This document shows, piece after piece, positions 3,001 through 53,671 of a stretch of DNA of 54,913 nt (positions within the stretch are counted from its first letter, which is position 1; each line of letters begins with the position of its first letter). Origin of the DNA: a virus (taxonomy: Duplodnaviria; Caudoviricetes). The position numbers and the translations under genes were made by a program. The stretch spans positions 1 through 54,913 of the IMG/VR virus record IMGVR_UViG_3300021425_003774; one strand, written 5' to 3'. A model generated the notes under the pieces. The model did not search any database. It was not told the origin of the DNA and saw nothing but the letters and a program-made list of their open reading frames with translations.

Positions 3001-6000
3001 TTCAATTAGCAAATAACGATGATGCTATTGTAATTGGTCGTGGTACAGCAACATTCCTTAAAGACGAAGAATTAGGATTTGGTTGGGGCGGTGGTTGGTA
3101 TATGCTTGATGGTACATATATTCGTGCCAGAAACAATAAGCATATTTACACAACAGGCTCATACTACGGTAACGTTTATTACTCATATCAAAATACTGCT
3201 TATTATGCTGACCCAGATGGTTATTCACAATTTGCTGGTTTAGATGTTGATGATTATATCAGACATCGCGGTGATACAAATACATTCCTTCGTTTCCCAT
3301 CGAATGATTTTATAACACTTGGTACAAATAATACTGCAAGACTTAATATATCAAACTCTACTGTAAGAGCAAGAAACAAATTTGAAGTTTACGGTCCTGG
3401 TATTGAAATACAAAAAGGAAGTAATGGCGGTGGTGTAGGACTTACAGTATCAGACCAAAACAGTGGAGAGAATCCAGGATTAAGTGGATTACAGCAAGGT
3501 TCTATTTTATTCTATCATTCTGATGGTGCCGTCACTACAGGTTCAAGCGCTGCTTGGTATTTCAATTCATCAGAAGCAACTACTCATTACGTATTTGGAA
3601 CAAACAGCGGAGCAGCTGGTGGTAATCTTGTCCCAATCGTTACCAACTCTGGTAGTTTAGGTAATTCAAGTTATCGTTGGGGTTCATTATACGCAGGAAC
3701 AGGTAATTTCTCAGGTGATGTAACTGGTAATAATGCTTACTTCTATCGTTACTATGATAGGAATGATGCAACATATTATGCTGACCCAGCAGGTACTTCT
3801 TATCAACAGTATATGAATATTAATGTTGGTAACGAAAACACAGGTGGTGCAAACTCAAGTACTATCGGATTGATGATGAGAGGTAATTACAATAGTAATA
3901 CCTGGGCTCATAAATTCCATAAGTATGACCACGGTGGCGGAGTACCGATTTACTTATCAGAAACAATTGGTACTGGAGCATGGCAAGCAGTTCAAAGATG
4001 GGGATCATATACAGGAAACTCATTTAAGTCGCAAATATTTGGTACTCTAAAAGTTGATACAAATATTCATACACCAATATTGTATGATTCAGATAACTCT
4101 GGATATTATGTAAATCCAGCCGGCTCATCAAGAATGGATACAATTACTCTTGATGGCAATGCGGTTGTATTGAGGGAACCGACTGGTGACTATGGCTCTC
4201 TTGCAGTTGATGGCGGTGGAAGAAATGGATATGAAGGATTCTCAATCGGTGGTCGTTCTGTCTTTATGCATAACAATGCCGGCCGAACAGGTATTTACAA
4301 TGATGTAGATAATGAATGGTTCTGGTATGCAGACCGAAACTCTTCAATGCGATTAATGTTTAATGGCGGCGAACAGGCAAGAACAGAAAGTGGATACTTC
4401 TTAGCAAATAATCAGATTCGTTCACCAATCTTCTACGATTCAAATAATACAGGCTATTACGTAGATCCTAATAATACATCAAGATTCAACGCAGTTCAAG
4501 CATTAAGATATTACTTTAACCACGCAACCACATATTATGCCGATGCAGCATCAGGTGATTATGGTTCAATGGAAGTTGGTGGTCAGAAGAATGGTTGGGC
4601 AGGATATTCTATTGCTGGTCAATGGGTGTTAATGTCTCCGGGTGCTGACCGCGTTGGCATATACAACGATACTGATAATGAATGGAGTCAGCAGTGGTAC
4701 AGAAATTCATATACACTGTTATACTTTAACGGTATACAACAAGCACAAACAGCAAATGGTTACTTCCTCGCAAATAATCAAATGCGAGCACCAATCTACT
4801 ATGATTCAAATAATACAGCTTACTTTGGTCATTTTGATGATCGCTCGAGAATGCGTACTCTTGAGCTTGGTATCAATGCGTTAACAAGTTCTGGTAGTTA
4901 TGCTTTAGGTATTAGTCATAACAATAGATACTCAATAGGTTTCCGTAATACAAATATTAATGGAAATTATCCTTGGTTAGTACACGACAATTTTAACTTT
5001 AACCAAAAAGGAAATAGAGATGCATTTATTGTTCACTTCAATGGATTGGGCGATAGATTAAATCTTACAGAAGACGGTGACTTACTTATCTCTGGAGAGA
5101 TGGCAGCTTCAAATTACAACCTTAGTGGTGGTAATGAAAACATATCGTTAAGTAAATTATATACTCGTGGTGCTGCCGATGAAACACTCTTTGATGGTAC
5201 AATGTACTTTGAGAAACGTGTTATTCAGAATATGCAAGGCGCTGAAGATTATACTACAAACGTTACATCAGAATTTGTTAAATCGCCTGATGCTCCAGGC
5301 GGATCTTCTTATGTATTAAGAACATCTGCATATAGAACCTTCTATTCAGATTATGTTGAAGTAGAACCTGGTGAAGAAGTATTTGGTGAAATTCACGCAA
5401 GAAGAATATCAGGTTCAGGTGGTCTACTTTATTATGGTATTGAAAGATTTGATAAAGATAAAAGACCAATTGCTGGTAATACAGGTACAACATACTTTGT
5501 CACCGGCGGTAATAATGTAACAAGTACATCTTGGCAGACATTTAGAAATCACACAACAATTCCGACATCTCATACTCCATATAATGGCTCAGATGGTGGC
5601 GGTGTAAGATATGTCAGATTAAGAATTCTTTATAACTATAATTCTGGTGGAGCTCTTCGTGAGTTCACAATGCCAATTCTGAAGAGAGTTAATTATCATT
5701 CAAATATTAGAACTGATTATGATATTTTTGCTAGCAGATTATATTCATATCAGAATACAGGTTTTTATATTGACCCAGACAATACGTCAATTATTAATGA
5801 CTTGACTGCTGACCAAATAACTGCTAACATTTATTACGATAGAGGAAACACCGCATACTATAACGATCCTGCGTCTAATTCTAATACTGTAAAACAAACA
5901 ATGCAAGAGTTGGTTGTTGATGCAGGTGGAAGAAATAATAGTAATGATGCAACTGCTTACTTCTCTGCAACCAATAATAATGATTGGGGAGTAATAATTA

Positions 6001-9000
6001 ATAAGAACCGTAGTGCAGCTACTGAATACGGTTTAGATGTTCGTATGGGTTCATCTCATAGTTACGGAATCAGATTATTAGCAGGCGGTACTGAAAGATA
6101 TAGATTAAACAATACATATATGTGGCATAGAGGTCAGTCACGTGCACCGATCTTCTATGATTCAGATAACACCGCATATTACACAGACCCAGCATCTGAA
6201 TCTAGAATTAATACATTAAGAACTGCAGGTCGAGTTGTAATTGGCGGTACATTCCAAAACAACCCTTATAACTCAGTATCATCTACAAGACTACACTTTG
6301 GTGGTGGTAACTCTGATGCGAATGGTAACTATTACATTGGTACAAACTTAGAAAACTATAATGGTAATTATACCAAGCTTGATTTAAGATGGCATACAGG
6401 TATTCGTATGGGTGCTCAGGCAGTCTACGGTGGTACTCGTATATACAACAACGAAGATTTAAGTACTCTGTTATTCTCTGTTGGTCGAAGTGATACACAT
6501 ACTCGTGTTGAAAGTGGTAACTTATATGTAATGAATGGAGATGCAAGAGCTCAAATATTCTATGACATTCAAGATACTAACTGGTATGCAAATCCAAATG
6601 GTACTTCAAGATTCAGAGAATTGGATGTTGAAAACAATGGAAGTCAGGAAGTATTTAGAGCATATAGATATGGCTCAGGTCCAGGAAACTATACTGCAGC
6701 AAGGACAATTAACCAATACGGTAATCACTCTTGGGGTATTGTTCACGAGTTTAGAATCGGTGAACCTGGCTCACAAAGCGTACCTGGTGGAACTGACAGA
6801 CCTTCTATTATGTTCTCAACTGGATATAATTCAACAACTTGGTCGGTTGGTTTCGGTTATGTAGATAACGATTTCAGAATCAAACAAAATCACGGTCATA
6901 TCAATCAATCTTGGGGTACTGAGAGATTTAGAATTAATACAAGTGGTGAAGTTATTATTGGAAATAACTTCTATGGTACCAATGCTTACTTCAACCGTTA
7001 TTATGACAGAAACAATACTGGATATTATGCTGACCCAGCAAGTACATCTGTATTTAATGCAATGATATTTAATGGTGACGTTGATTTCAACGGTGGTGCC
7101 AATGCGATTAATATTACAAGTTCTGATATTCGTTCAGACGGTAATTCAAGTTGGACAGGTAACCCAGGAGCTGGTGTATTAAAAATACAAGCTCATAGTA
7201 ATAGATGGTATATTGTATCTAACGGCAACTCAAATAGAATTGTTCAGTTCAGACAAAACGGTACCGACAGATCTTATATTGCCAATGACGGTAGATTACA
7301 TGGTGTTGGTGGTACAGGTTCTCAAGATTGGAGAGCTCCAATATTCTATGATAATAACGACACTGGTTATTACATGGATCCGAACTCTACTTCAAACTCT
7401 GCAATAAGACAAAGAGGTGGAACATTACACGGTCCTAATACAACTTGGGGACAATATCTATATGTTGGTGGTAATGGACATTGGACTGGCGCTTATGCTT
7501 CAGTAGCAGCAACAAATGGTAACTTACACCTTGATGCAAGGGCAGGATACAGTATATACTTGAACAACTATGTTGGTGGTCAAACATACAACATAGGTAA
7601 CTTCTATTCAGACAGATACTACGATAGAAATAATACATCTTACTACGGTGACTTTGCTTCTACTTCATATATGAATGATGTAAGAGCTAACATATTCTAC
7701 GAACGTGAAAATACAGCATACTACTTTGGTTCAAGCCAAGGTGATGCAAGAATGCGTGATGTCAGATTCAATCAAGTAAGAGTTGAAAACGGTGCAACAA
7801 TTGAATCAGTAAATGGTGCTGGTAGAATTTACATGGGTGGTAACTTCCACATAGATGCACAGAACGGTTTAGATCTTTACCTCAACTATTATTCTGGTCG
7901 AAGAACAAGAATGTTCTATACTTCGAACAGAGAAGGCGCAAGACTCGATACGAATGGTATTTTCTACGCATTCAGTCAAATACGTACACCATTAATTTAC
8001 GACTATAATAATACTGGTTACTATCTTGATATGAATAACAACTCAAGGTTTAACGACCTTCAGTTGAGAGGATTATATGTAACCACACGTTATCATACAG
8101 GTTCTGACTTTACAGCAGGTACTCTTGTTCAAACAAGTATTCCTGCGACGGCAACTAACGGTGCTTCGTTCGTACTTGAGGCAACAGGTAAATCTTATTC
8201 AGGTGATCCGCCATTCATGTTCACCGCACAAGGTTACTTGTATGCTAATACTATTATTAACTATTCAGGTCAACACATTGGTAAAGCTGGTTTCGGCACA
8301 ATGTATATGTTCCAATACAATGGAGTATTATGTTTCTGGTGGCCAAGAGTATCTTATTGGAACTCCTTCGCCGTTCACGTAAGAAATGCAAACGGTGATG
8401 ATAGAAACTTAGTCACAAGTATTACAAACTCAGGATTACCTGGCGGAAGAACTAAAGAACGTCAAGTAGCAATGCGTACTACCGCAATGTACAATGTTAA
8501 CATTGGTACAGGTGATATGTATGCAACACGTTATTACGATAGCAACAATACATTCTATTATGGAGACTTTGCTTCAACATCAAGAATCAACGCATCCAAT
8601 AATTACGGTTATTTAACATTCCAAAATTATGGTGTTGGTGTTACAGGTACTTATACATCCACAAGATTACAACAAGTATTCGCAATGGGTTCATCATACA
8701 GATTACCTGCTGATGGTAACTCTACAGCAAATATGTATGGTATTGCTTGGTCGCATCCAAACGCTGGTTCTAAAGGTGGTGCCAATCAGTTAAACGATCA
8801 CGGTATGTTAATTATTAACAATGGTTCGTTTAGAGCTGCGATATCAAGTAGAGCAGTATTCTCTGCTGATATTCGTTCGCCAATATTCTATGATTGGAAT
8901 AACACCGGCTATTATGTCAATCCAGCCGGCAATTCTCAATTAAGCGCAGTATATGCTAACAATTGGTTCAGAGCCCAAGGTGGAACTGGTCTTTACTTCC

Positions 9001-11627
9001 AGGATTACGGATATGGTATTCGTTCAGCAGGTGGTGAAGGAAACCCATACGGTAACGTATCAACATATAACACCGGCCGAAACGGTTGGTCTGGTTATGG
9101 TATTGGTACTCGATGGACTCTGATGTCAACCGAAGGCAACAACTGGGGTATGCATGATAATACTCGTAGTTGGAACTTCTATTACAACGGTTCATATCAT
9201 AGATTCTATTATGGATATGTTTACTCAAGCGAATCATTCCGTGCTCCAATATTCTATGATTTAGATAACACTGGCTATTATGGAAACTTTGCTGGTGATA
9301 CTAACTGGCAAGGTCTAACAGCTCGTGGTCAAGCAATGATTGGCTTGCAGGGTATGACCAGAAGTGGCGCAATAAGTAACTACGGTAGAAGACCTAATAT
9401 AACAGGTGACTCTAACTATTGGACAGGATCCAAAGGTTGGGGTAGAGTTGATATGAACACAGTTGGTAACTGGGGTTCAGGATTCTTCGACTCATGGTCT
9501 AATCCGCCTAATCAACCTTCAGGTACTTCGCACTGGGTAGGTGTACAAGCATACCATTATTCTAACGGTTCAGCAAGATATGGTTGGCAGATGGCAGGTG
9601 GTCCGATTACCAACCTAAGATTCCGTTCTTCTTGGTCTGGTTGGAGAGCCTGGAGAACAATACCTGTTCTCGATGAAAATAGTGGTAACGGTGGTTCAAT
9701 GTATGCCGGCCGTTATTATGATTCTAATAACACCGGATATTATACTGACCCAGCATCTACTTCGGTAATGAACGTTCTTGATATTCGTGGAGAAATTTAC
9801 AACGATGGTTGGTTCCGAAACGATAACGCAGGTCGTGGTTTATATAATAGTTCAACAGGCAGACACTTCTATAGCCCAGGTTCAAGTTATTGGCACTTAG
9901 ATGGCGGTTCAAGTTCTGGTGGTTTAATTATATACGATCGTTATAACGGTTCACAAGGAAGCGGTACAGGTCGTCGTGGTTACCTCTATTACGATAGTTC
10001 AGGTTTCGGTCTGTTAAACAGTTCAGGTGGTTGGGCAGTTCGTATTAACCCAGGAAGTTCTTATACTGAAATTTATAGAAATCTTTATGTTGGAACTGAT
10101 GTAAGAGCACCAATCTATTACGATAGAAATAATACAGGATATTACTTCAACGGTGCTTCTGCTCATAGCACAAGATTTGAAGGTGTAAGTGCTAGAACAA
10201 TGGCTTGGTTAAATCAGCCAGGTCATACAAGAGATAGCGGTGAATATTACAGAGCAAGACCTCGTATAACAGGTAATACTGATTATTGGACTGGTGCGAT
10301 GGGTTGGGGTCGTCAAGATATGACCAACACCGTTGCCGATTGGGGTTCAGGATTTATTGATTCTTGGAGTAATCCACCTAATCAGCCTTCAGGTACATCA
10401 CACTGGGTCGGAGTTCAAGCGTATCACTATTCTAATGGTGGAAGCCGTTATGGTTGGCAAATGGTCGGCGGACCAATTACTAACTTAAGATTCAGAAGTA
10501 CTTGGGGTGGATTCCGTTCTTGGAGAACAATTCCAGTATTAGATGAGAATAGCACGAATGGTGGATCAATGTATGCAGGTCGTTATTACGATTCTAATAG
10601 TACAGGTTATTATACAGATCCAGCATCAACATCAAATATGAACCAAGTACGTGCATACGTATTTGACTTTAATGGTACAGGCGGTAACTCAGGAAGAGCA
10701 ATCGGTTCTTATCCTTATGAGTTATTCCAGGCTTCGGGTGGTTGGAGTTTCCCATATCCTGATTTAAGAATTAACTATCATACAGGTATTTCGTTAGGAG
10801 CAAATCCAAGTTACGAAGGTATGAGGTTCATGAATGATTATAACTCGAATACTGTTAGATTCCAAGTCAACGGTGGTTCAAGTTATACTTACGCAAATAC
10901 TTGGTTACAAGTTGGCGGTGGTGGTGTCGGTATCTATGATGGATATAACGGTGCTCACTTCTTCCCGAATAACCAAACAAGTTACGGCTCATGGGCAATA
11001 TACGGTAACAGAAGTGGATGGTATGGTTTAGCATGGCCACAACCTACTTGGGATCCTCACCTAATGTTCGATGGAAACGGCTCAGGTGGTATCTATCTAC
11101 AAGGTGGCGGTCGTTGGGTATACTATCATAACCGTAGTAATAACTGTACTGGCTTCGCATCATCAAGTACAGTTTCTGGATATCGTGTTAGAATCAACGG
11201 TTCACTGTATTGTAATGGTAACGTTGTTGCTTACTCTGATGCTCGTGATAAAGATAACATTATTACTATTGACGGAGCGTTAGATAAAGTATTACAATTA
11301 CGTGGCGTTTATTACGATAGAAAAACTAGAAAGCATTTAGTTGATGATCGTGATGAAATATATAAAGGACGTCAACTTGGTATGATCGCTCAGGAAGTTA
11401 AAGATATTGTTCCTGAAGTTGTATCTTATGCCGAAGAAATTGACCAATACGGTCTTGATTATCCTAAGATGGTTGGTTTACTTGTTGAAGGTATTAAAGA
11501 TCAAAACGCTATCGTAAAGAGTCAAGAAGAAACAATAAATAATATGCAGAAAGATATTGACATTCTGAAAGAAATGGTATATAATATGCAATCAATAATG
11601 GAGAATAGTAGCAATGGCACTAATTAA
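3..11627 (+). CDS. Giant long tail fibre / receptor-binding protein with C-terminal peptidase S74 chaperone domain (5'-truncated by window)
   Basis: The frame of ORF 909..11627 stays open back to position 3 (QIRNIGTG...GLDADTVDGLQASQFLRSD). Many YYDxxNTxYYxDPAxxS repeats. C-terminal YSDARDKDNI..ALDKVLQLRGVYY..GMIAQEV..PEVV..LDYPKMVGLLVEGIK is the S74 pattern, followed by a coiled coil. Confidence 0.9.
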   Translation, partial: QIRNIGTGDYSITNPQQGNSIEFYDGTAGIVIKYAGSNKLAFTSTGTDFTGLATTTIEGNRILTTADEGAGNGLDADTVDGLQASQFLRSDIADTAAGTITFSQDINVDGNAQIDGTLTVDQGALFKALLRTQQNLQVDGNAVIDGDLTVSGNTTYVNTEEILLSDNIITLNANYTGGSPTENGGIEVERGILANAKLVWNEASDYWQLEANSQVIGRIITTADEGSGNGFDADTVDGLEAAQFLRSDADDTATGNITIEGDLTIGDNAGPAQIIFDGNGINRTLYQAAGEIGFLNSSANWAMKSDVDGDLEVERDVEAGRDVIAQDDITATTGNIAATAGNVTAGADVTAQNNITATTGNITASAGNIAATVGDVTAGDDVTAGDSITAQNNITATTGNITATAGSVDAGTSVSAGTTVTAGTDVIGQRFVDADDNSYLVNPAGDSVMNTIDIDDYVRHNGDTNTYIGFSAEDTVVVGASGTNRLTITPSAVTASVDVYGPRFIDTDNNTYLVDPAGTSVINDISLVGEIIHDGDTNTYLNFVAADQFEIVTGGGQRVLVKNTGVDITGDLDVSGNITAVDGTFTGDLSASRFVDSDNTNYFLDPNSDSVLHSIGIDDYIVHNGDSNTYLGFDGNDNIVFHTAGAERFEINATNITGTVDGIFPNLFASRYYDSQNATYYLDPASNSRLNGIGLVGTIFHDGDTDTFIHFDAANSIEFVAGGNQRFLVQGTYALATNQMRSPIYYDSNNTNYYGDFASTSQMAQIDIDSYIRHRGDTNTYLGFDANDSITFVTGGAERVNITDSLSTFYQPVTVQGAVTADRFVDRQNASYYVNPADAGLAATFAGGIRINAISNYTRYDDNSGDGGIALAGPSDITGTSGTTVAISGQYTSGYALMYLNRIDPTANPFNGGNRFIEFRADGATGGSIRGDSSGNIYQILQSGTNWGFWTSGASEALIVDDSGNVMISNSTAPTYTTGDNTPVVGGALTTSKLHIGGSIQLANNDDAIVIGRGTATFLKDEELGFGWGGGWYMLDGTYIRARNNKHIYTTGSYYGNVYYSYQNTAYYADPDGYSQFAGLDVDDYIRHRGDTNTFLRFPSNDFITLGTNNTARLNISNSTVRARNKFEVYGPGIEIQKGSNGGGVGLTVSDQNSGENPGLSGLQQGSILFYHSDGAVTTGSSAAWYFNSSEATTHYVFGTNSGAAGGNLVPIVTNSGSLGNSSYRWGSLYAGTGNFSGDVTGNNAYFYRYYDRNDATYYADPAGTSYQQYMNINVGNENTGGANSSTIGLMMRGNYNSNTWAHKFHKYDHGGGVPIYLSETIGTGAWQAVQRWGSYTGNSFKSQIFGTLKVDTNIHTPILYDSDNSGYYVNPAGSSRMDTITLDGNAVVLREPTGDYGSLAVDGGGRNGYEGFSIGGRSVFMHNNAGRTGIYNDVDNEWFWYADRNSSMRLMFNGGEQARTESGYFLANNQIRSPIFYDSNNTGYYVDPNNTSRFNAVQALRYYFNHATTYYADAASGDYGSMEVGGQKNGWAGYSIAGQWVLMSPGADRVGIYNDTDNEWSQQWYRNSYTLLYFNGIQQAQTANGYFLANNQMRAPIYYDSNNTAYFGHFDDRSRMRTLELGINALTSSGSYALGISHNNRYSIGFRNTNINGNYPWLVHDNFNFNQKGNRDAFIVHFNGLGDRLNLTEDGDLLISGEMAASNYNLSGGNENISLSKLYTRGAADETLFDGTMYFEKRVIQNMQGAEDYTTNVTSEFVKSPDAPGGSSYVLRTSAYRTFYSDYVEVEPGEEVFGEIHARRISGSGGLLYYGIERFDKDKRPIAGNTGTTYFVTGGNNVTSTSWQTFRNHTTIPTSHTPYNGSDGGGVRYVRLRILYNYNSGGALREFTMPILKRVNYHSNIRTDYDIFASRLYSYQNTGFYIDPDNTSIINDLTADQITANIYYDRGNTAYYNDPASNSNTVKQTMQELVVDAGGRNNSNDATAYFSATNNNDWGVIINKNRSAATEYGLDVRMGSSHSYGIRLLAGGTERYRLNNTYMWHRGQSRAPIFYDSDNTAYYTDPASESRINTLRTAGRVVIGGTFQNNPYNSVSSTRLHFGGGNSDANGNYYIGTNLENYNGNYTKLDLRWHTGIRMGAQAVYGGTRIYNNEDLSTLLFSVGRSDTHTRVESGNLYVMNGDARAQIFYDIQDTNWYANPNGTSRFRELDVENNGSQEVFRAYRYGSGPGNYTAARTINQYGNHSWGIVHEFRIGEPGSQSVPGGTDRPSIMFSTGYNSTTWSVGFGYVDNDFRIKQNHGHINQSWGTERFRINTSGEVIIGNNFYGTNAYFNRYYDRNNTGYYADPASTSVFNAMIFNGDVDFNGGANAINITSSDIRSDGNSSWTGNPGAGVLKIQAHSNRWYIVSNGNSNRIVQFRQNGTDRSYIANDGRLHGVGGTGSQDWRAPIFYDNNDTGYYMDPNSTSNSAIRQRGGTLHGPNTTWGQYLYVGGNGHWTGAYASVAATNGNLHLDARAGYSIYLNNYVGGQTYNIGNFYSDRYYDRNNTSYYGDFASTSYMNDVRANIFYERENTAYYFGSSQGDARMRDVRFNQVRVENGATIESVNGAGRIYMGGNFHIDAQNGLDLYLNYYSGRRTRMFYTSNREGARLDTNGIFYAFSQIRTPLIYDYNNTGYYLDMNNNSRFNDLQLRGLYVTTRYHTGSDFTAGTLVQTSIPATATNGASFVLEATGKSYSGDPPFMFTAQGYLYANTIINYSGQHIGKAGFGTMYMFQYNGVLCFWWPRVSYWNSFAVHVRNANGDDRNLVTSITNSGLPGGRTKERQVAMRTTAMYNVNIGTGDMYATRYYDSNNTFYYGDFASTSRINASNNYGYLTFQNYGVGVTGTYTSTRLQQVFAMGSSYRLPADGNSTANMYGIAWSHPNAGSKGGANQLNDHGMLIINNGSFRAAISSRAVFSADIRSPIFYDWNNTGYYVNPAGNSQLSAVYANNWFRAQGGTGLYFQDYGYGIRSAGGEGNPYGNVSTYNTGRNGWSGYGIGTRWTLMSTEGNNWGMHDNTRSWNFYYNGSYHRFYYGYVYSSESFRAPIFYDLDNTGYYGNFAGDTNWQGLTARGQAMIGLQGMTRSGAISNYGRRPNITGDSNYWTGSKGWGRVDMNTVGNWGSGFFDSWSNPPNQPSGTSHWVGVQAYHYSNGSARYGWQMAGGPITNLRFRSSWSGWRAWRTIPVLDENSGNGGSMYAGRYYDSNNTGYYTDPASTSVMNVLDIRGEIYNDGWFRNDNAGRGLYNSSTGRHFYSPGSSYWHLDGGSSSGGLIIYDRYNGSQGSGTGRRGYLYYDSSGFGLLNSSGGWAVRINPGSSYTEIYRNLYVGTDVRAPIYYDRNNTGYYFNGASAHSTRFEGVSARTMAWLNQPGHTRDSGEYYRARPRITGNTDYWTGAMGWGRQDMTNTVADWGSGFIDSWSNPPNQPSGTSHWVGVQAYHYSNGGSRYGWQMVGGPITNLRFRSTWGGFRSWRTIPVLDENSTNGGSMYAGRYYDSNSTGYYTDPASTSNMNQVRAYVFDFNGTGGNSGRAIGSYPYELFQASGGWSFPYPDLRINYHTGISLGANPSYEGMRFMNDYNSNTVRFQVNGGSSYTYANTWLQVGGGGVGIYDGYNGAHFFPNNQTSYGSWAIYGNRSGWYGLAWPQPTWDPHLMFDGNGSGGIYLQGGGRWVYYHNRSNNCTGFASSSTVSGYRVRINGSLYCNGNVVAYSDARDKDNIITIDGALDKVLQLRGVYYDRKTRKHLVDDRDEIYKGRQLGMIAQEVKDIVPEVVSYAEEIDQYGLDYPKMVGLLVEGIKDQNAIVKSQEETINNMQKDIDILKEMVYNMQSIMENSSNGTN
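980..1280 (+). repeat. In-frame low-complexity tandem repeats (ITATTGNITA / DVTAG) in tail fibre
   Basis: ataacagccacaacaggaaacattacagc-type units recur at about 988, 1066 and 1183. Confidence 0.8.
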
Positions 11628-33990: not shown

Positions 33991-34022
33991 GAAGGACTCC
34001 AATCGGGGTCCTTCTTTTTTTT
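33991..34022 (+). terminator. Rho-independent terminator after gp23
   Basis: GAAGGACTCC-AATC-GGGGTCCTTC stem followed by a T8 run. Confidence 0.9.
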
Positions 34023-34323
34023 ACCATACGAAATTAGACCAAGGTTCATAACAACCTTGAACACCAATAGCAGAGTTATCACAACCTCTTGCGTCGTCAA
34101 AGATCTCTAAACCGATTTCATCGAACTCAGAAACATTAAAGGTAACTGGTGAATAAGTTCCATAATGATAGTCAACAGACATAGGCTTAATAACAATACT
34201 ATCTTCGTTAAACTCCTTGATGTAACCAACAATTCTTTTACCTTCAAATTTATATTGGCACTGTTCAATTCCATTTGGATCCATACCAAGTGCAACCCAA
34301 TTAGCAAATAAAGTCTTTTTCAT
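34021..34323 (-). CDS. Hypothetical protein
   Basis: 100-aa ORF coupled (TAATG) to an upstream 40-aa ORF. Confidence 0.65.
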   Translation of the reverse strand: MKKTLFANWVALGMDPNGIEQCQYKFEGKRIVGYIKEFNEDSIVIKPMSVDYHYGTYSPVTFNVSEFDEIGLEIFDDARGCDNSAIGVQGCYEPWSNFVW

Positions 34324-34445
34324 TAACCTGCCCTCATTTCAAACTGTTCATCAATAAAGTGTTCCAACTGTTCTCCTTCGAGACCAAGAGCTTCACCTTC
34401 TTCTTTCAATTGTTCTAAAACAATTTCATTCCATTCACAACTCAT
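34323..34445 (-). CDS. Small acidic hypothetical protein (40 aa, MSCEWNEIVLEQLKEEG...)
   Basis: Read by hand; AAGGAG RBS and promoter directly upstream. Confidence 0.6.
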   Translation of the reverse strand: MSCEWNEIVLEQLKEEGEALGLEGEQLEHFIDEQFEMRAG

Positions 34446-34475
34446 AATTAACTCCTTTTCCTTTAATATACAACA

Positions 34476-34504
34476 ATTATACTCTATATGAGAGCAATTG
34501 TCAA
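34476..34504 (-). promoter_or_regulatory. Early sigma70-type promoter
   Basis: TTGACA-17 nt-TATAAT on the minus strand. Confidence 0.85.
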
Positions 34505-34527
34505 TAGTTTTATGAGAAAAAGTTTAA

Positions 34528-34746
34528 TTATTTTTTAGAGAAATAAGATCGAATCAGAAAGATTCTAGTGTATGCCACTATAGTCATAACTAAAGTGACC
34601 AGAGTGCCCAACATGACAGGGTCAGTAATACCAAACCGTTCTATATAGATATACAACAAAAAGAGGTTTAGAGGGTAATTTATGGCTAGGCCGGTTGCGA
34701 TTTGAAATGAAGTTTCTTTATGAATTCTTTTTGTTTCTGGTTTCAT
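34528..34746 (-). CDS. Small two-TM membrane protein
   Basis: Two hydrophobic segments; ATGA overlap with the hemC stop. Confidence 0.65.
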   Translation of the reverse strand: MKPETKRIHKETSFQIATGLAINYPLNLFLLYIYIERFGITDPVMLGTLVTLVMTIVAYTRIFLIRSYFSKK

Positions 34747-35585
34747 TTTATGTTTGTGCCGAGTTCACGACCAATAGTAATGTATTCTTCAATAGGTCCA
34801 TGATTAAGACTTAATTGCTGAGTTTCAAAATTCTTTGCTATCATGTGTATTGTCTTATTATCTATATATGAAAGTACACCAATAGGAGTATGACAATCTC
34901 CATCTATTTCTCTTAACATTGCCTTCTCTGCCATTGCACAAAACCAAGTATCAATATGATTCTTTGACCAAAGCTTTGCGAAAATTGCTTCATCACGCTC
35001 ATCGTTTAGCTTACGTGTTTGTAAAGCAATAACTCCTTGATTAGGAGCAGGTATCATATCTGCTGTTCCAAATATTCTACTTGCTTTTATAGTAAGTCCT
35101 AAAGCATCAAGACCTGCCTTTGCTAAAACAATTGCATCATATTCTCCATTTTCTTGTTTCGCAATACGAGTATCTATATTACCACGAATAGGAACAATCT
35201 CTGCACCTGGATAAAGATCCATTAATTGATACATTCTTCTTGGACTGCTTGTACCTATTGTTCTTGGATTAACTGCATTACCTATTAAACAATCTCTAAA
35301 GTCAGCTCTTGGTAATACACAAGGAATATCTAACAAGTGATCGTTATCTCTTGTCATGTCTTTCATTGCATGGCATGCAATATCAATATGATGTTCTATT
35401 AATGCGGCTTCTATTTCTTTTGTGAATACACCCTTTCCACCCATTTCTTGGATTGGTGTCTTTGGGTTAAGATCTGCTGTGGAATCTATAAGGACTTGTG
35501 TTGTGTCAAACTCTAAATGTTTTTGAGCTGCTTTAGTATAGGCAAGAGCAAGCTTTGATTTTCGAGTTCCAATTAATGGTATCAT
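34743..35585 (-). CDS. hemC: Porphobilinogen deaminase (hydroxymethylbilane synthase)
   Basis: GTRKSKLAL, GGKGVFTKEIE, HAMKD, GTSSPRR, IRGNIDTR, YDAIVLA.AGL, PAPNQG, cofactor Cys in GDCHTPIG. Confidence 0.93.
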   Translation of the reverse strand: MIPLIGTRKSKLALAYTKAAQKHLEFDTTQVLIDSTADLNPKTPIQEMGGKGVFTKEIEAALIEHHIDIACHAMKDMTRDNDHLLDIPCVLPRADFRDCLIGNAVNPRTIGTSSPRRMYQLMDLYPGAEIVPIRGNIDTRIAKQENGEYDAIVLAKAGLDALGLTIKASRIFGTADMIPAPNQGVIALQTRKLNDERDEAIFAKLWSKNHIDTWFCAMAEKAMLREIDGDCHTPIGVLSYIDNKTIHMIAKNFETQQLSLNHGPIEEYITIGRELGTNIK

Positions 35586-35600
35586 ATTTTGTCCTTATCT

Positions 35601-35675
35601 TGGTAGCCCGTAGGAGAATCGAACTCCTGTTGCATGGATGAAAACCATGTGTCCTAACCACTAGACGAACGGGCC
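35601..35675 (-). tRNA. tRNA-Glu(TTC)
   Basis: GGCCCGTTCGTCTAGTGGTTAGGAC...CATGG-TTTTCAT-CCATG...GGAGTTCGATTCTCC...ACCA; CCA is encoded. Confidence 0.95.
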
Positions 35676-35679
35676 GAAT

Positions 35680-35733
35680 AAAAAAACGGCGGATCTTCCA
35701 TATACGCCTATCAAAGGTATGTCAAGATCCGCC
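35680..35733 (-). terminator. Terminator-like hairpin closing the putative ncRNA
   Basis: GGCGGATCTT...AAGATCCGCC 10-bp stem followed by GTTTTTTT on the minus strand. Confidence 0.7.
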
Positions 35734-36343
35734 TAGGTATTGAACTTCAGTGTCACAATCGTCATTTGGTCTTACTGCCTTTCTAAAGGACCTGATGACT
35801 AATCAGGGATTTCAAACTACCTTAGTGATTGGAAATATTGTGTTAACGCAATTCGTTAAATAATGTGGAATTGTTAATCGTAATATTCCAATCGAAAAAA
35901 CTTAAAAATTCGTGGGTACGTCTCTCGGACTTATCTGTTACTTGTTAACTCCAGTCTCGGAGGTAGCAAACTACCTCTATACCTAAAGGAGAAAGATCCT
36001 AGACTGCCGTCTTGTGTTGGTTTGGGTGCAAACCTAAACCCTATCTCTTTCACAGTGCGCGGTTCGTAACCGACTTCAGTATCGAGCGTTTCTTCATACA
36101 CGGAGACGCTTTGATACCCACTCTATTGATTTCGTTCTGACCCGTATAATTACATGTATTCCTACATCGGCCCTCTCATTACTCTGTGAATATATCTGTT
36201 ACGATGGGATATATTCAACAGCTTCAGCTGCCGGTCGGGTTGTCCACCTATATATTAGAGCCTTCCGATTGATAAGATCTTCTATTCGACTCAGGTTCTC
36301 TACTCACCGATTGTCTCTGTCGGTGGGGTGTTTCCCTCAATAT
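35680..36343 (-). ncRNA. Putative large structured non-coding RNA (~660 nt, ROOL/GOLLD-like class)
   Basis: No ORF >=60 aa in any frame; at least 8 hairpins; consensus promoter at the 5' end; GC stem plus U-run at the 3' end; adjacent to a tRNA. Confidence 0.7.
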
Positions 36344-36349
36344 ACGATT

Positions 36350-36378
36350 ATTATACTATAGTTCTTTATGAATGTCAA
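36350..36378 (-). promoter_or_regulatory. Early sigma70-type promoter driving the ncRNA
   Basis: TTGACA-TTCATAAAGAACTATAG-TATAAT; no RBS or ORF follows. Confidence 0.88.
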
Positions 36379-36397
36379 TAGTTTTTGTGAAAAAAGT

Positions 36398-36589
36398 TTA
36401 ATTATTTGATAATATGAAATCTGCTACGTCAGAATCCTCGGTAGCTTCAACAATACAAGGAATTCCTCTTGCATCCATTTTATCAACAAAATCTCTTGCA
36501 TGCTTATATCTCATCTCACCTTGGTCAATTTTTTCCATTGTGGATGGATTAATAATAGAGACATTAAATAATGTAAAATCGGTAATCAT
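36398..36589 (-). CDS. Hypothetical protein
   Basis: Last of a chain of coupled small ORFs. Confidence 0.55.
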   Translation of the reverse strand: MITDFTLFNVSIINPSTMEKIDQGEMRYKHARDFVDKMDARGIPCIVEATEDSDVADFILSNN

Positions 36590-36774
36590 ACTTCAGCAAT
36601 ACTCGACTTATGAATTACAGTTGATTCCAACCTACCATACTTATCGTATGTATACACAGTTTGTTGCTGATGATCTCCATGCACTTGAGTTGTTACTTTT
36701 ACAACTCGCGTATCATACTCAACTTTATTGAAATAATTGGTTGGCCACATTGGGCTGATAGGAGTAACTTCCAT
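36586..36774 (-). CDS. Hypothetical protein
   Basis: Coupled small ORF with GAGGA RBS. Confidence 0.55.
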   Translation of the reverse strand: MEVTPISPMWPTNYFNKVEYDTRVVKVTTQVHGDHQQQTVYTYDKYGRLESTVIHKSSIAEV

Positions 36775-36993
36775 TTATAGATCCTCTTCCAAATCGTCAT
36801 ACCTGACTAATTCTATTTCGTTGTTTTCATCTCTTCGAGTTCTAATATACTTCATATCAATTAAAGTATCAATAGTTTCTTGAGTGATTCTTTTTGTTTC
36901 TTTATACGATGTCATGGGAGCAAAAGAATAACCTACAGCAGTAAATATGGCTGCAGTAACCCAATACATCCAAACATCCATACTAATCTCCAT
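36775..36993 (-). CDS. Hypothetical protein with N-terminal TM helix
   Basis: WMYWVTAAIFTAVGYSF hydrophobic segment. Confidence 0.6.
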   Translation of the reverse strand: MEISMDVWMYWVTAAIFTAVGYSFAPMTSYKETKRITQETIDTLIDMKYIRTRRDENNEIELVRYDDLEEDL

Positions 36994-37210
36994 GGCGTGC
37001 TAACACCGCGTCGATGATTCTTTCCTGCGGAGAAGCATTCATATCAACTCTTTCAGCAGGTTCATCGGTTGCTATGAAGCCATATTCGATTGACATCTCA
37101 TATAGCTGATCTTCGGACATAGTTCTTAAACAAGCGCGCAGCAAATCATCTTTACTGATGACTCGTCTGTTAGCGTCTTCGAACAATTGGTTCGACAAAT
37201 TCTTTCCCAT
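36983..37210 (-). CDS. Hypothetical protein
   Basis: AGGAG RBS; 75 aa. Confidence 0.6.
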   Translation of the reverse strand: MGKNLSNQLFEDANRRVISKDDLLRACLRTMSEDQLYEMSIEYGFIATDEPAERVDMNASPQERIIDAVLARHGD

Positions 37211-37241
37211 ATTACACTCCTATTAATACCATAATTATAAT

Positions 37242-37805
37242 TTAAGCAACTTCAGTTGCATTCCACCATTCAGGAATGTCACGTTTGGACCATGTCATAC
37301 TAAAACGCTTTTGCTTTGTATGATAAAATGCGCGGTATGATTCTACCGCATCTTCAGATATGCATTCTGGATTTGATGCCATCGCAAGTCTGAATGGTGT
37401 TCTTTTATTTGACCTATGGATATTCACAGGAGGTGCCTTTAAGGCCTGTCTTAGTTTTCTATCGGTTGCATGTATCTTTCCATACCTATGCGTGTATTCA
37501 TCACACAATGCAACAAAATGTTTATAGTGCCAATTATAGTTGGCTGAATTTTCTCTTGTCCAAATAGTACATGGATGATTGAAATGACATGCTTTATACA
37601 ATGTCCTTTCTCTTTCTTTGTCTTCAAGATAAAAGTATTGTAGCATAGAACCACTCTTTGATGGTCTACGCTCCATTATGCCGTCAATCATACGATGAGT
37701 TGTTGAAAGCATTTGTGCAGATTCAATAACCATCTTAACAACATGTTTATCACATTGCTGTTGAGCAGCTTTAATTGGGTCGTCGTCTAAAATAAAAAGA
37801 TTCAT
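37242..37805 (-). CDS. Pyrimidine-dimer DNA glycosylase family protein (DenV-like)
   Basis: MNLFILD.DP..AA...CDKHVVKM..ESAQMLST.H; H.NHPCTIW.R; EYT.RYGK.H. Confidence 0.8.
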   Translation of the reverse strand: MNLFILDDDPIKAAQQQCDKHVVKMVIESAQMLSTTHRMIDGIMERRPSKSGSMLQYFYLEDKERERTLYKACHFNHPCTIWTRENSANYNWHYKHFVALCDEYTHRYGKIHATDRKLRQALKAPPVNIHRSNKRTPFRLAMASNPECISEDAVESYRAFYHTKQKRFSMTWSKRDIPEWWNATEVA

Positions 37806-37812
37806 AATGTCT

Positions 37813-37841
37813 ATTATATCAAAAGTTTAATTAAATGTCAA
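37813..37841 (-). promoter_or_regulatory. Early sigma70-type promoter (likely leaderless transcript)
   Basis: TTGACA-17-TATAAT, 7 nt before the ATG. Confidence 0.8.
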
Positions 37842-37844
37842 TAG

Positions 37845-38063
37845 TTAACCTTCGTATTCAATTCCTAAGTGTTCGCCTTCATTAAAATGATAGCCCATTG
37901 ATTTCATAAAATTTTCTAATACTCCAATCATCTCATCTTTGCTCAAATCTTTTTCCATTACGTCAATGGTGATTCGTGTATTAGTTGAACTTGCATCTTC
38001 GTATGGATGGCATATCAATTGAATATATGGTTTTTCTTCAGCAGGTTTATGATTCCAAGTCAT
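37845..38063 (-). CDS. Hypothetical protein
   Basis: 72-aa ORF with AAAGGTG RBS, downstream of tRNA-Leu. Confidence 0.6.
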   Translation of the reverse strand: MTWNHKPAEEKPYIQLICHPYEDASSTNTRITIDVMEKDLSKDEMIGVLENFMKSMGYHFNEGEHLGIEYEG

Positions 38064-38089
38064 TCACCTTTCCTCTTGTTATTAGTAAG

Positions 38090-38176
38090 TGGTACCGCGA
38101 GTCGGACTTGAACCGACAAGGCCGTTAAGCCGAGGGATTTTAAGTCCCTTGTGTTTACCAATTTCACCACCGCGGC
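38090..38176 (-). tRNA. tRNA-Leu(TAA)
   Basis: GCCGCGGTGGTGAAATTGGTAAACAC-AGGGA-CTTAAAA-TCCCT, long variable arm, GTCGGTTCAAGTCCGAC...ACCA. Confidence 0.95.
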
Positions 38177-38232
38177 CTCGCATAGTGAAAAGCCCAGGGG
38201 ATCCTGAGCTTCTCGGTTTTGGTCAGAACGAC

Positions 38233-38511
38233 CTATGAAGCCTTAAGCATGGTGGCAGGAACTCTCCATACACCATCGGCAGTAGAAACCTTAACGTTTT
38301 TCTGCATTACTTTCTCAACAACTCCTGAGATCTTTTGACCTGATCTTGAATTGATGAAGAAGACAGAATCTCCTTTAGCAAAGTTGCCTGTAGCCATTTG
38401 AGCAACGTTGGTTTGATGTTGCTTAAACATTGTAGCAACTTGTTTAAAATCAGAACCTTCCATTTTAGCAAACAGAGAGTTGATTTCGAGCATTTCTTTT
38501 TTAGTTAACAT
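38233..38511 (-). CDS. Hypothetical protein with SH3/KOW-like C-terminus
   Basis: FAKGDSVFF..GVVEKVMQKNVKV..WRVP. Confidence 0.65.
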   Translation of the reverse strand: MLTKKEMLEINSLFAKMEGSDFKQVATMFKQHQTNVAQMATGNFAKGDSVFFINSRSGQKISGVVEKVMQKNVKVSTADGVWRVPATMLKAS

Positions 38512-38541
38512 ATTTTCACCTTTTCCTTAATTTATATAGAT

Positions 38542-38570
38542 ATTATACTATAGTTCTTTATGAATGTCAA
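38542..38570 (-). promoter_or_regulatory. Early sigma70-type promoter (38-bp identical copy of 36349..36386)
   Basis: TTGACA-17-TATAAT. Confidence 0.88.
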
Positions 38571-38579
38571 TAGTTTTTT

Positions 38580-38768
38580 TCAATTATTTTCAGCTAATTC
38601 TTGCTGAGCGTAACGAATTTCAGCAAGGTCAACTTTAAGTTCAGATAGCATAGCCATTGTTTCAGGACCAAAGTAATCCTTACCCAATTGACTGTTAATT
38701 GATAGGATAGCGGTTTCAGCGTTCTGAATTGCACTAACCTTTTTATCGATGTTCTTAACTACTTCCAT
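38580..38768 (-). CDS. Hypothetical protein
   Basis: AGGAG RBS; 62 aa. Confidence 0.6.
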   Translation of the reverse strand: MEVVKNIDKKVSAIQNAETAILSINSQLGKDYFGPETMAMLSELKVDLAEIRYAQQELAENN

Positions 38769-38771
38769 GAT

Positions 38772-38963
38772 TTATACTCCTGAAGCAACGAAAGCGTGAG
38801 CAGCTTTGGACTGCGGAACCAACATAAAGATTTCGTCAAATCCGTAAAGAACATAACCGTCCAACGGATCAGTACCTTTTTCGTATTCAACCAAGTCAAA
38901 CCCAGCAGGTCGAGAACCGCGAAAGGTTTGGATATCTTCAATAAGAATAGTTTCTAACGACAT
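38772..38963 (-). CDS. Hypothetical protein
   Basis: Start moved to MSLETIL at 38963, after the AAGGA RBS and the promoter. Confidence 0.6.
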   Translation of the reverse strand: MSLETILIEDIQTFRGSRPAGFDLVEYEKGTDPLDGYVLYGFDEIFMLVPQSKAAHAFVASGV

Positions 38964-38993
38964 GATTAATTCCTTTTTCCATTTGATGTATCT

Positions 38994-39022
38994 ATTATGG
39001 ACTATTTCGCTCATAATGTCAA
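38994..39022 (-). promoter_or_regulatory. Early sigma70-type promoter
   Basis: TTGACA-17-CATAAT. Confidence 0.75.
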
Positions 39023-39217
39023 CAACTTTTTTCAGTTTTTTTAGTTATTTTTAGAACTTTTTGTTATATCATTTATGATTGTTATTCAGTCAAAAATGTC
39101 CTCTAGTAATCATAAATGATCGTAGTATTATTGTACTACTACTTCAAACAAGACCTCTAGAAGGAGAATGGAGGCTTCTTGATTCGTATTAATAGTGACT
39201 AACGGCTACTTACAATG

Positions 39218-49265: not shown

Positions 49266-49288
49266 CAACCGGTTGGATTGCACTCAGG

Positions 49289-49399
49289 TTATGCAATCGT
49301 ACTTATGCTGTAAACCGTCATTCCCATAAAAATAGAAATTAACAAACACTCGATACAGATTTCACTATTGAGGGCAATCCGTTTTACGAATGCTCTCAT
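49289..49399 (-). CDS. Small hydrophobic peptide (36 aa)
   Basis: MRAFVKRIALNSEICIECLLISIFMGMTVYSISTIA with GAGGAAGGA RBS; read by hand. Confidence 0.55.
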   Translation of the reverse strand: MRAFVKRIALNSEICIECLLISIFMGMTVYSISTIA

Positions 49400-49481
49400 T
49401 TCCTTCCTCTAAATATTTTTAATATGCCGCCCAGGGTGCCAAGGTAATACCCAATACTTAAAGAATACTTTTAACATTTTT

Positions 49482-49574
49482 TTAAACACCAGGATTAACT
49501 CCCACTAAAGAAATCAAAAATATACTTACTAATGTAAATAATTCTAGTCCTTCTTTGATTTTTTCAAGCTTCAT
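49482..49574 (-). CDS. Small hydrophobic peptide (30 aa)
   Basis: MKLEKIKEGLELFTLVSIFLISLVGVNPGV; read by hand. Confidence 0.4.
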   Translation of the reverse strand: MKLEKIKEGLELFTLVSIFLISLVGVNPGV

Positions 49575-49665
49575 ACTTTTACCCGTTACGAAAAAAGATT
49601 TTTCTTTTCCCTATAAAAGTATATATAACCAGAATTGATAATCTATAATAAAAATATGATATATT

Positions 49666-49842
49666 TTACATGCTGTAAAAAATACCTTCTTCCTCTGCTA
49701 TACACTCATCATAAAACTTTTTAAGAGGTGCGTATTGATTACGAATCTGAACTGGCATTACACCACCAGAATCTATAACCCATTGTATTTCTCTTGCCAA
49801 TTTTCTTGCGAGTTGTATCTCCTTTAATATTCTTGCATCCAT
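49666..49842 (-). CDS. Hypothetical protein (58 aa)
   Basis: MDARILKEIQLARKLAREIQW...; follows the SnoaL-like gene; read by hand. Confidence 0.5.
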   Translation of the reverse strand: MDARILKEIQLARKLAREIQWVIDSGGVMPVQIRNQYAPLKKFYDECIAEEEGIFYSM

Positions 49843-49848
49843 AGTTGC

Positions 49849-52025: not shown

Positions 52026-52054
52026 ATTATACTCTATATCATAATGAATGTCAA
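52026..52054 (-). promoter_or_regulatory. Early sigma70-type promoter
   Basis: TTGACA-17-TATAAT. Confidence 0.85.
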
Positions 52055-52093
52055 TAGTTTTTATGAAAATAAACTAACTTTTTTCACCATTGA

Positions 52094-53572: not shown

Positions 53573-53603
53573 AATAACTCCAATTATTTTAATTTATACA
53601 GCT

Positions 53604-53632
53604 ATTATACAATAGTTCTTTATGAATGTCAA
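53604..53632 (-). promoter_or_regulatory. Early sigma70-type promoter
   Basis: TTGACA-TTCATAAAGAACTATTG-TATAAT, one mismatch to the 36350 and 38542 copies. Confidence 0.87.
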
Positions 53633-53671
53633 TAGCTGTGATAAATTAAAATCCATGAAAGTGGAAGCTGC

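Follow-up and report, generated by a model that had tools for sequence, protein, structure and literature searches.

Large elaborate RNAs are rare in bacteria and phages; each of the known examples, namely ribosomal RNA, RNase P, introns, OLE, ROOL and GOLLD, is associated with unusual chemistry or unusual assemblies. Phage T4 produces the stable RNAs C and D of about 120-140 nt, the function of which is unknown and which are co-transcribed with tRNAs and cut from a shared precursor. ROOL (Rfam family RF03087) and GOLLD (RF01998) are among the systems closest to the one described here. ROOL RNAs are reported to have an average length of 581 nt and many multistem junctions; their carriers are phages and prophages, frequently with tRNA genes close by (PMC5737381, PMC12286853). 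GOLLD RNAs are reported as modular, carried by phages and prophages near tRNAs and conserved in their 3′ part with the other part variable; an example from a marine metagenome adjoins a tRNA, and expression goes up during phage lysis (PMC12286853). According to the same report, both ROOL and GOLLD form cages, GOLLD pulls down ribosomes, and the pocket of the OLE dimer has been likened to the pocket occupied by the ribosomal protein RpsU (bS21) (PMC12286853). Here, a large structured non-coding RNA gene is described from a viral DNA stretch of 54,913 nt (IMG/VR record IMGVR_UViG_3300021425_003774), the whole of which is referred to as the window. The gene covaries among its relatives, is linked to a promoter and consists of a two-domain core (D1 and D2) followed by optional 3′ modules (D3 and D4).

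With 666 nt, more than 15 helices and nested junctions, the RNA in the window is of the same order as ROOL in size and complexity, and it is likewise phage-borne and located beside a tRNA gene, tRNA-Glu. It differs from ROOL in that the covariance model does not match, in that its carriers are marine T4-like myophages and in that the tRNA is only an occasional neighbour. With GOLLD it has in common that it is large, phage-borne, modular and adjoined by a tRNA; however, the GOLLD model does not match, and whereas the conserved part of GOLLD is the 3′ one, here the 5′ core of D1 and D2 is conserved and the 3′ modules are optional. OLE, an abundant bacterial RNA, is comparable in being large, and the phage gene for ribosomal protein S21 that adjoins the RNA in 8 of the 52 distinct members may be set next to the RpsU-like pocket of OLE, but OLE is cellular and not phage-borne, its model is unmatched, and the S21 adjacency is a minority context that may mean nothing. 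Like T4 RNAs C and D, it is a non-coding RNA of a T4-type phage next to a tRNA, its length being 430-670 nt in contrast to theirs. The RNA is the same in kind as ROOL and GOLLD and a member of neither.

A covarying RNA family with a two-domain core

Relatives were collected by several routes. The first of them led through 29 loci encoding the neighbouring protein HemC; among the 25 hemC loci with enough upstream sequence the RNA was found in 5, and in the other 20 the upstream open reading frame (ORF) abuts tRNA-Glu or hemC directly, so that the RNA represents an optional insert. An exact 18-mer probe, which covers the RNA from its first conserved base on, yielded 39 viral and 68 metagenome loci. 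Four cut-off loci, duplicates and nine distinct sequences that were dissimilar beyond the probe were left out, which resulted in 57 distinct homologues including the window copy (23 clusters at 90% identity, 10 at 80%). Full-length homologues were seen at 75-90% identity. A probe derived from D2 gave mostly chance matches and added nine loci (six distinct) that do not contain the exact 18-mer, and the 5′ end of the RNA is for that reason regarded as highly conserved and not as strictly invariant. Collecting homologues and testing them for covariation had been proposed in the preliminary description of the window, and the 57 and the 6 additional distinct homologues indeed provide strong compensatory pair changes. 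We are highly confident that the structured RNA family is genuine.

For D2, a MAFFT alignment of 41 distinct sequences (A2) was evaluated with a RIBOSUM RNAalifold structure of 48 pairs against 500 shuffles. Standard pairs were found in 89.2% of the cells as compared to 76.5 ± 0.5% after shuffling, 31 of the 48 pairs were changed on both sides (24.0 ± 1.7 shuffled), and the covariation score was 0.403 (0.174 shuffled); by each of these three measures none of the 500 shuffles scored as high. The number of further pair types, a weaker measure, was 74 as compared to 69.0, with 27 of 500 shuffles as high. Sliding the partners by 1-3 columns gave a pairing of 36-42% and covariation scores of 0.07-0.11, a comparison in which the structure is favoured due to its derivation from the tested alignment; the shuffle control, in turn, leaves relatedness in.

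Because MAFFT sets several helices in differing registers in the individual subgroups, a register-free duplex-swap test was added. Here, the duplex energies of cognate strand windows were compared with those of permuted strand windows for every distinct sequence in 2000 permutations. For D1, several helices of which are misaligned by MAFFT, covariation was assessed by this test. For 15 of the 16 helices of D1 and D2, permuted partners did as well as the cognate strands in only 0-2 of the 2000 permutations, and for P3, P3a, P4, P5, P6, P7 and P7b they beat the permuted partners in 2000 of 2000 permutations. P1 (764 of 2000) is near-invariant and gives the test no power. Covariation was also found for the D4 hairpins and the terminator stem (37, 10 and 0 of 2000; 11 distinct D4 sequences with 5-8 distinct pairs), and more weakly for D3, in which two helices gave 9 and 35 of 2000 and the third is unsupported. 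It is through covariation in its relatives that the RNA exceeds chance, and not through folding energy.

In order to relate the RNA to known families, the whole window was searched with cmscan against all 4227 families of Rfam 15, and at the gathering score only the two tRNAs were retrieved. A permissive search of positions 35500-36600 (relaxed filters, E ≤ 10) gave no ROOL, GOLLD, OLE, HEARO, RNase P, transfer-messenger RNA (tmRNA), raiA or intron match and just three chance-level matches of 15-19 bits, as compared to gathering scores of 60-80; ARAGORN detected no tmRNA in the window either. The preliminary description had suggested this search and had left the choice between a member of the ROOL/GOLLD class and a new large RNA. 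The latter half of this proposal is borne out by an RNA that is conserved, covarying and promoter-driven, and the former is not, there being no Rfam match even at E ≤ 10. The resemblance to ROOL suggested there for the string GUGGGUAU-hairpin-ACUGAAG could not be confirmed; the stretch is not conserved even among the members of the RNA family. Words resembling RNase P and a B12 box (AAGUCCG, ACAGAAC), noticed by eye, were discarded as well, since no Rfam model matched and the GUCC/GGAC pairing does not covary.

A blastn search (word size 11) of 50,697 deposited phage records with the window copy and a divergent copy as queries retrieved no homologue and nothing besides promoter-like matches of 55 nt in two Streptococcus satellite phages. 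The 18-mer, a narrow test, occurs in three contigs of prokaryote genomes from 185,579 species, and in no case does the match extend into the RNA. A description of the family was not found in the full-text literature, in which a mention in supplementary files is possible, and the main text of a survey of pelagimyophages does not contain the word 'noncoding' (PMC7029224). As far as found, the RNA constitutes a previously undescribed family of large, highly structured phage non-coding RNA.

The coordinates of the RNA and its parts are listed in Table 1, nucleotide n of the RNA corresponding to window position 36346-n. The conserved core is formed by D1 and D2 with about 430 nt, given that the 3′ parts are variable or optional among the relatives. 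Transcription probably starts at 36345-36343, and invariance among relatives begins at A36343. The partner strand of P1 reads UCAAUAnA across the relatives, and a further optional hairpin of D1, P3a, is not part of the window copy. In variants of the L171 type two otherwise invariant helices are exchanged (by eye), CACC/GGUG for GGCC/GGUC and CCCG/CGGG for AACCA/UGGUU. D3 is present in 46 of the 52 distinct relatives, in one subgroup of which its inner stem is swapped for AUCUCAAAGA/UCUUUUAGAGAU, and D4 in at least 11 of the 52.

Most of the stems proposed in the preliminary description recur in this structure: 36305-36325 corresponds to P3, 36187-36217 to P7a, 36019-36040 to P12, 35960-35977 to P15, 35827-35893 to D3, 35791-35807 to a D4 hairpin and 35688-35733 to the terminator. 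Only the stem at 36079-36117 was right in part, its 3′ strand lying in P9 (GUAU/AUAC) and its 5′ strand missing from most relatives. The repeated motifs listed there are given no weight because neither is conserved among the homologues: CUGAAG does occur three times in the RNA, with three further copies in 3 kb of neighbouring sequence (a total of 6 in 3725 nt against an expectation of 1.56), and AGGUAGUUUG occurs exactly twice in the window, both times in the RNA (0 of 100 shuffles reach two). Two structural candidates were rejected. The first, a GGG/CCC hairpin formed locally at the 5′ end of the RNA, is indistinguishable from the long-range CACC/GGUG pairing except via the L171 variants. 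The second, a pseudoknot (GCG/CGC) that involves the loop of P9 and was seen by eye, clashes with the covarying P8 and shows no covariation.

Table 1. Features of the RNA locus in window coordinates
Feature	Position	Strand	Description
Whole RNA, 666 nt	35680..36345	-	between promoter and terminator; no ORF of at least 60 aa
Sigma-70-type promoter	36350..36378	-	TTGACA, 17-nt spacer, TATAAT
Domain 1 (D1)	36121..36345	-	nt 1-225; closed by P1
P1	36343-36337 with 36129-36122	-	AUAUUGA (5′ end) with UCAAUAGA; in 47/47 single-sequence minimum free energy folds
D1 interior			P2 (CACC/GGUG), P3, P4, P5 with loop UCUUAUCAA (36277-36269), P6, P7, P7a, P7b
P7a	36218-36187	-	optional insert hairpin; present in window copy
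P7b	36167-36154	-	in D1; GGAA loop
Domain 2 (D2)	35912..36120	-	nt 226-434; closed by long-range helix P8
P8	36109-36101 with 35927-35918	-	GCGUCUCCG with CGAGAGACGU; long-range
P8 outer extension	UACCCAC at 35918-35912	-	GUGGGUA with UACCCAC
P9	36101-36079	-	hairpin; conserved 13-nt loop GAAGAAACGCUCG
P10	36074-36057	-	variable hairpin; insertions of 37 nt or larger in some lineages
D2 long-range helix		-	CUGU/ACAG
P11	36048-36043 with 35997-35992	-	stem of three-way junction P11, P12, P13
P12	36041-36019	-	
P13	36012-36001	-	
P14		-	in D2
P15	35977-35960	-	in D2
U-rich linker	35893..35910	-	AAUUUUUAAGUUUUUUCG; D2 to D3; composition conserved, sequence not
Domain 3 (D3)	35828..35892	-	long hairpin; inner part ACGAUUAACAAUUC - loop CACAUUAUUUAAC - GAAUUGCGUUAAC conserved
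Domain 4 (D4) and terminator	35680..35827	-	hairpins 35807-35791 and 35789-35778; terminator stem 35733-35688
Conserved AAAUGACGAUUGUGA	35767-35753	-	in D4
tRNA-Glu(UUC)	35601-35675	-	ARAGORN; Rfam tRNA 62 bits
hemC	34743..35585	-	porphobilinogen deaminase HemC, 280 aa; Pfam PF01379 7.2e-58, PF03900 1.5e-08
RNA-library contig, 409 nt	35926-36333		1 difference
RNA-library contig, 362 nt	35922-36283		0 differences
RNA-library contigs, 131, 137 and 222 nt			0 differences each

Promoter, gene neighbourhoods and source phage

The RNA occupies the longest ORF-free stretch of the window, as had been stated before; considering ORFs of at least 60 aa on both strands, the largest uncovered gap extends over 812 nt (35586-36397). 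The perfect promoter reported upstream was found again as well, with TTGACA at 36378-36373 and TATAAT at 36355-36350 on the minus strand and 12 of 12 consensus matches. A motif of the form TTGACW-N16-18-TAKAWT precedes the RNA by 3-9 nt in 55 of the 56 distinct homologues with upstream sequence. Moreover, four further copies of its promoter block of about 40-70 nt lie on the minus strand elsewhere in the window; the block is a strongly conserved promoter cassette, presumably an early one. Perfect TTGACA-17-TATAAT promoters are located on the minus strand of 34000-39200 at 34476-34504, 36350-36378, 37813-37841 and 38542-38570, and the longer repeated block is also present at 52026-52069 and 53595-53635. 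Since pelagimyophages are reported not to carry the T4 genes for the control of early and middle transcription (PMC7029224), these promoters, including the one of the RNA, would most simply be early promoters used by the host polymerase. In the Streptococcus satellite phages MK448460.1 and MK448463.1 a segment of 55 nt (2043-2097) is 84% identical to the promoter block of the window, which most likely reflects a convergent consensus promoter and not homology.

At the other end, the terminator with a 10-bp stem and U7 is present as it had been described: GGCGGAUCUU (35733-35724) pairs with AAGAUCCGCC (35697-35688), followed by the U-run at 35686-35680. A simple terminator scan missed it due to its loop of more than 8 nt. 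tRNA-Glu begins 4 nt past the U-run, a spacing that provides no space for a promoter of its own and suggests that the tRNA is made via read-through or processing of the transcript of the RNA. The hemC gene downstream is an auxiliary metabolic gene. It follows tRNA-Glu(UUC) directly in the window (34743-35675, minus strand) and also in many relatives without the large RNA (loci L012-L028). The C5 route to tetrapyrroles starts from Glu-tRNA, and for this reason the pairing of tRNA-Glu with hemC may be functional and may hint at a host with the C5 route. The RNA is present in one copy in the window and in one copy in a relative of 156 kb.

The unit of promoter and RNA was found in at least three gene neighbourhoods. 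In the first, a denV-like gene and four small ORFs precede it, and it is followed by hemC, with or without tRNA-Glu, or by other small ORFs. In the second, it lies between a TAGT-like glycosyltransferase gene with a small ORF and hemC, and the RNA ends with a terminator after D3. In the third, it follows a gene for an SNase-like nuclease and precedes a small ORF and the gene for ribosomal protein S21, with an ATP-dependent DNA ligase further on. The next recognisable ORF in the 52 distinct members is hemC in 20 and S21 in 8, with others or none visible in 24; S21, reported as a core gene of pelagimyophages (PMC7029224), is the next or next-but-one ORF in those 8 members (for example L039:7032-7328, Pfam PF01165 2.7e-17, in the third neighbourhood). 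The position upstream of tRNA-Glu emphasized in the preliminary description is real in the window and not general, as it applies to 9 of the 52. Directly after D2, a strong intrinsic terminator was identified in five variants (L058, L102, L114, L134 and L184).

The window is a 54.9-kb piece of a viral contig, about 29% complete. Genes for the large terminase, tail sheath, scaffold and major head protein correspond to the content of a T4-like myophage, and the DNA of the capsid gene is about 75% identical to that of Pelagibacter phage HTVC008M and Methylophilales phage Melnitz. The carriers of the RNA family are marine T4-like myophages, the nearest cultured matches of which are pelagimyophages. 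The RNA locus itself lies inside a block of small minus-strand genes that is flanked by two plus-strand blocks. In the same region a second phage tRNA, tRNA-Leu(UAA), is encoded at 38090-38176 (minus strand), and a protein of 187 aa (37242-37805, minus strand) shows a weak match to pyrimidine-dimer glycosylase (Pfam PF03013, 2.7e-05) and one to the PHROG 'DNA binding protein' (1.3e-57). At the start of the window, an open frame of at least 3874 aa (3-11627, plus strand) runs off the window; its sole Pfam match is a C-terminal Peptidase_S74 domain (endosialidase chaperone) at residues 3745-3807, and it is probably a giant tail fibre. The second-longest ORF-free stretch by the 60-aa threshold (49284-49848, 565 nt) gave no Rfam match at the gathering score.

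A proposed trans-acting RNA and its alternatives

With moderate confidence we propose that the RNA is a stand-alone phage RNA that acts in trans. It would be transcribed early in infection by the host RNA polymerase from the sigma-70 consensus promoter and fold into the domains D1 and D2, each of them closed on its own, to which the window copy appears to add the long hairpin D3 and the 3′ domain D4 with the terminator. As P1 would enclose its 5′ end and the terminator stem its 3′ end, the RNA may be shielded from end-dependent decay, and the protected molecule could accumulate as a stable folded particle and act in trans, with transcription past the terminator hairpin feeding the promoter-less tRNA-Glu and hemC. 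The leading guess for the target would be the translation or RNA machinery of the host, the RNA possibly serving as a scaffold or assembly. This guess is based on the analogy with ROOL, GOLLD and OLE, and the adjoining S21 in one lineage would fit. The occurrence of the promoter-RNA unit in several neighbourhoods argues for a portable, self-contained gene and not for the leader of one gene. More tentatively, the RNA could join ROOL and GOLLD as a third class of giant ornate RNA in phages that is related to neither, in the form of a self-assembling RNA-only particle or of a ribozyme targeting host translation (tRNA, ribosomes or bS21).

Several observations count against a stand-alone RNA transcribed from the minus strand, the first group of which concerns the strand. 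Structure by itself favours the minus strand only mildly. The whole RNA folds with z = -1.84 on this strand (1/20 shuffles), which is not clearly beyond chance, and the values by domain are -1.3 to -2.5 in the window and -0.1 to -2.5 in five family members. On the plus strand, the window copy of the RNA does outdo its shuffles in folding (z = -6.26), and for antisense D2 z was +1.07, +0.46 and -0.14 in three of the four further relatives examined. Folding energy was dropped as evidence for either strand, as the values by domain are weak and inconsistent in the five family members. A like-for-like comparison of D2 with RNAalifold gave -12.42 for the minus strand (covariation term -4.07; double changes in 14 of 19 pairs) and -9.64 for the plus strand (covariation term -3.14; 12 of 19 pairs), and with RIBOSUM scoring the result was a near-tie with the antisense strand marginally better. 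In the helices common to both strands, 24 G-U cells versus 4 A-C cells were counted for D2 and 22 versus 35 for D1, where the A-C excess comes from two columns, a terminal one in P1 and a misaligned one in P3. GNRA and UNCG tetraloops came to a near-tie of 71 on the minus strand versus 58 on the plus strand. Three points chiefly support the minus orientation: in 55 of 56 homologues the promoter is located at the D1 end, the U-tract terminators work in that direction only, and the far end adjoins different genes in different lineages.

The second group of opposing observations concerns the transcript and its surroundings. The tRNA-Glu in the window needs read-through of the terminator, at least 28 of the 52 distinct members are followed by hemC or S21, and some variants continue from D2 or D3 into an ORF, with no clear terminator in L126 and L039. 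A deletion variant, L048 (identical to L006; approximately nt 100-230 of its RNA), has lost most of D1 and most or all of D2 and keeps the promoter, the first approximately 100 nt, D3, D4 and the terminator; it is either a decaying copy or a sign that D3-D4 is useful on its own. As regards expression, 14 public RNA runs contain 21-54% of the sampled words, and four runs, each from a different study, have contigs (131-409 nt) that agree with the interior of the RNA at 0-1 differences (Table 1). These contigs are strandless, cannot show ends and could contain DNA, so that they are support and not proof of expression. A 3′ end at 35922-35926, where two of the contigs stop, was rejected because the family variants diverge there, and assemblers stop at such sites. 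Likewise, the zero cover of neighbouring protein genes in the four runs was not used, since the runs had been selected as containing the RNA and expression cannot be ranked from contigs.

The main rival is a cis-acting 5′ leader that serves its own transcript by antitermination, ligand sensing or the stabilisation or processing of the message (tRNA-Glu, hemC, S21), which we regard as possible, if rather doubtful. Processive antitermination by an RNA is exemplified by the put RNA of phage HK022. Such a leader would account for the fact that the RNA always stands directly after the promoter and heads a co-directional string of genes, that hemC (20 of 52) or S21 (8) so often follows, in some cases without an obvious terminator (L126, L039), that the tRNA-Glu of the window, 4 nt past the U-run, is made only by transcription through the 'terminator', and that the very first transcribed bases are engaged in P1. 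However, all genes of the block are co-directional anyway, which makes the position at the head of an operon weak evidence, and the one constant class of downstream genes that is expected of a cis-acting leader was not observed among the 52 distinct members. The differing downstream genes, together with the 20 of 25 hemC loci that do without the RNA, make a gene-specific sensor unlikely. Furthermore, strong terminators directly follow D2 in five variants, and about 430 conserved nt with more than 15 helices are far above the needs of known cis elements.

Less probable still, though compatible with a stand-alone, trans-acting RNA, is a new large ribozyme, for example one that cuts or joins tRNA or its own transcript during infection. 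The size, the two closed domains and the many invariant unpaired bases would suit a catalytic core; strictly conserved single strands (GAGGGAAACACCCC, AGGUGGAC, GAAGAAAC and UUAAC..UAAGUCCGA) are situated between covarying helices, the complexity resembles that of RNase P RNA or group I introns, and the adjoining tRNA needs processing from a shared transcript. Against this stands that no Rfam ribozyme family was matched at E ≤ 10 and that no sign of a processing site was seen, the contig stops near 35922-35926 coinciding with the divergence of the variants.

Very improbable, in our view, is an element at the DNA level (an origin or protein-binding palindromes), a missed protein gene or a transcript of the opposite strand. 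The low plus-strand z of the window copy, the near-equal consensus folding of the two strands and the imperfect palindrome in the core of D3 speak for such readings. However, the plus-strand z is not general among the relatives, the stems change their sequence yet keep their pairing, which is unlike a protein-binding site, and the conserved promoter lies at the D1 end, with differing genes at the other end. A protein gene is contradicted by indels that are not multiples of three and by the lack of an ORF of at least 45 aa common to the subgroups. A divergent member of ROOL or GOLLD, finally, is hardly credible despite the like size, the ornate structure, the phage origin and the adjoining tRNA in the window, because neither covariance model was matched at the gathering score or at E ≤ 10 and the tRNA is found in only 9 of 52 members.

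Due to its supported structure, dozens of variants, modular build, strong consensus promoter and matches in the RNA libraries of many studies, the RNA family is a ready candidate for cryo-electron microscopy, chemical probing and pull-downs. The scheme of a large RNA beside a tRNA in a phage reaches past the two families for which it was known. If the family is indeed a third class that works as an RNA-only machine on host translation, phages would use large structured RNAs as a general tool, and these would not be just two curiosities. A role in the take-over of the host, if true, would bear on microbial turnover in the ocean, as the nearest cultured phages infect very abundant bacteria.

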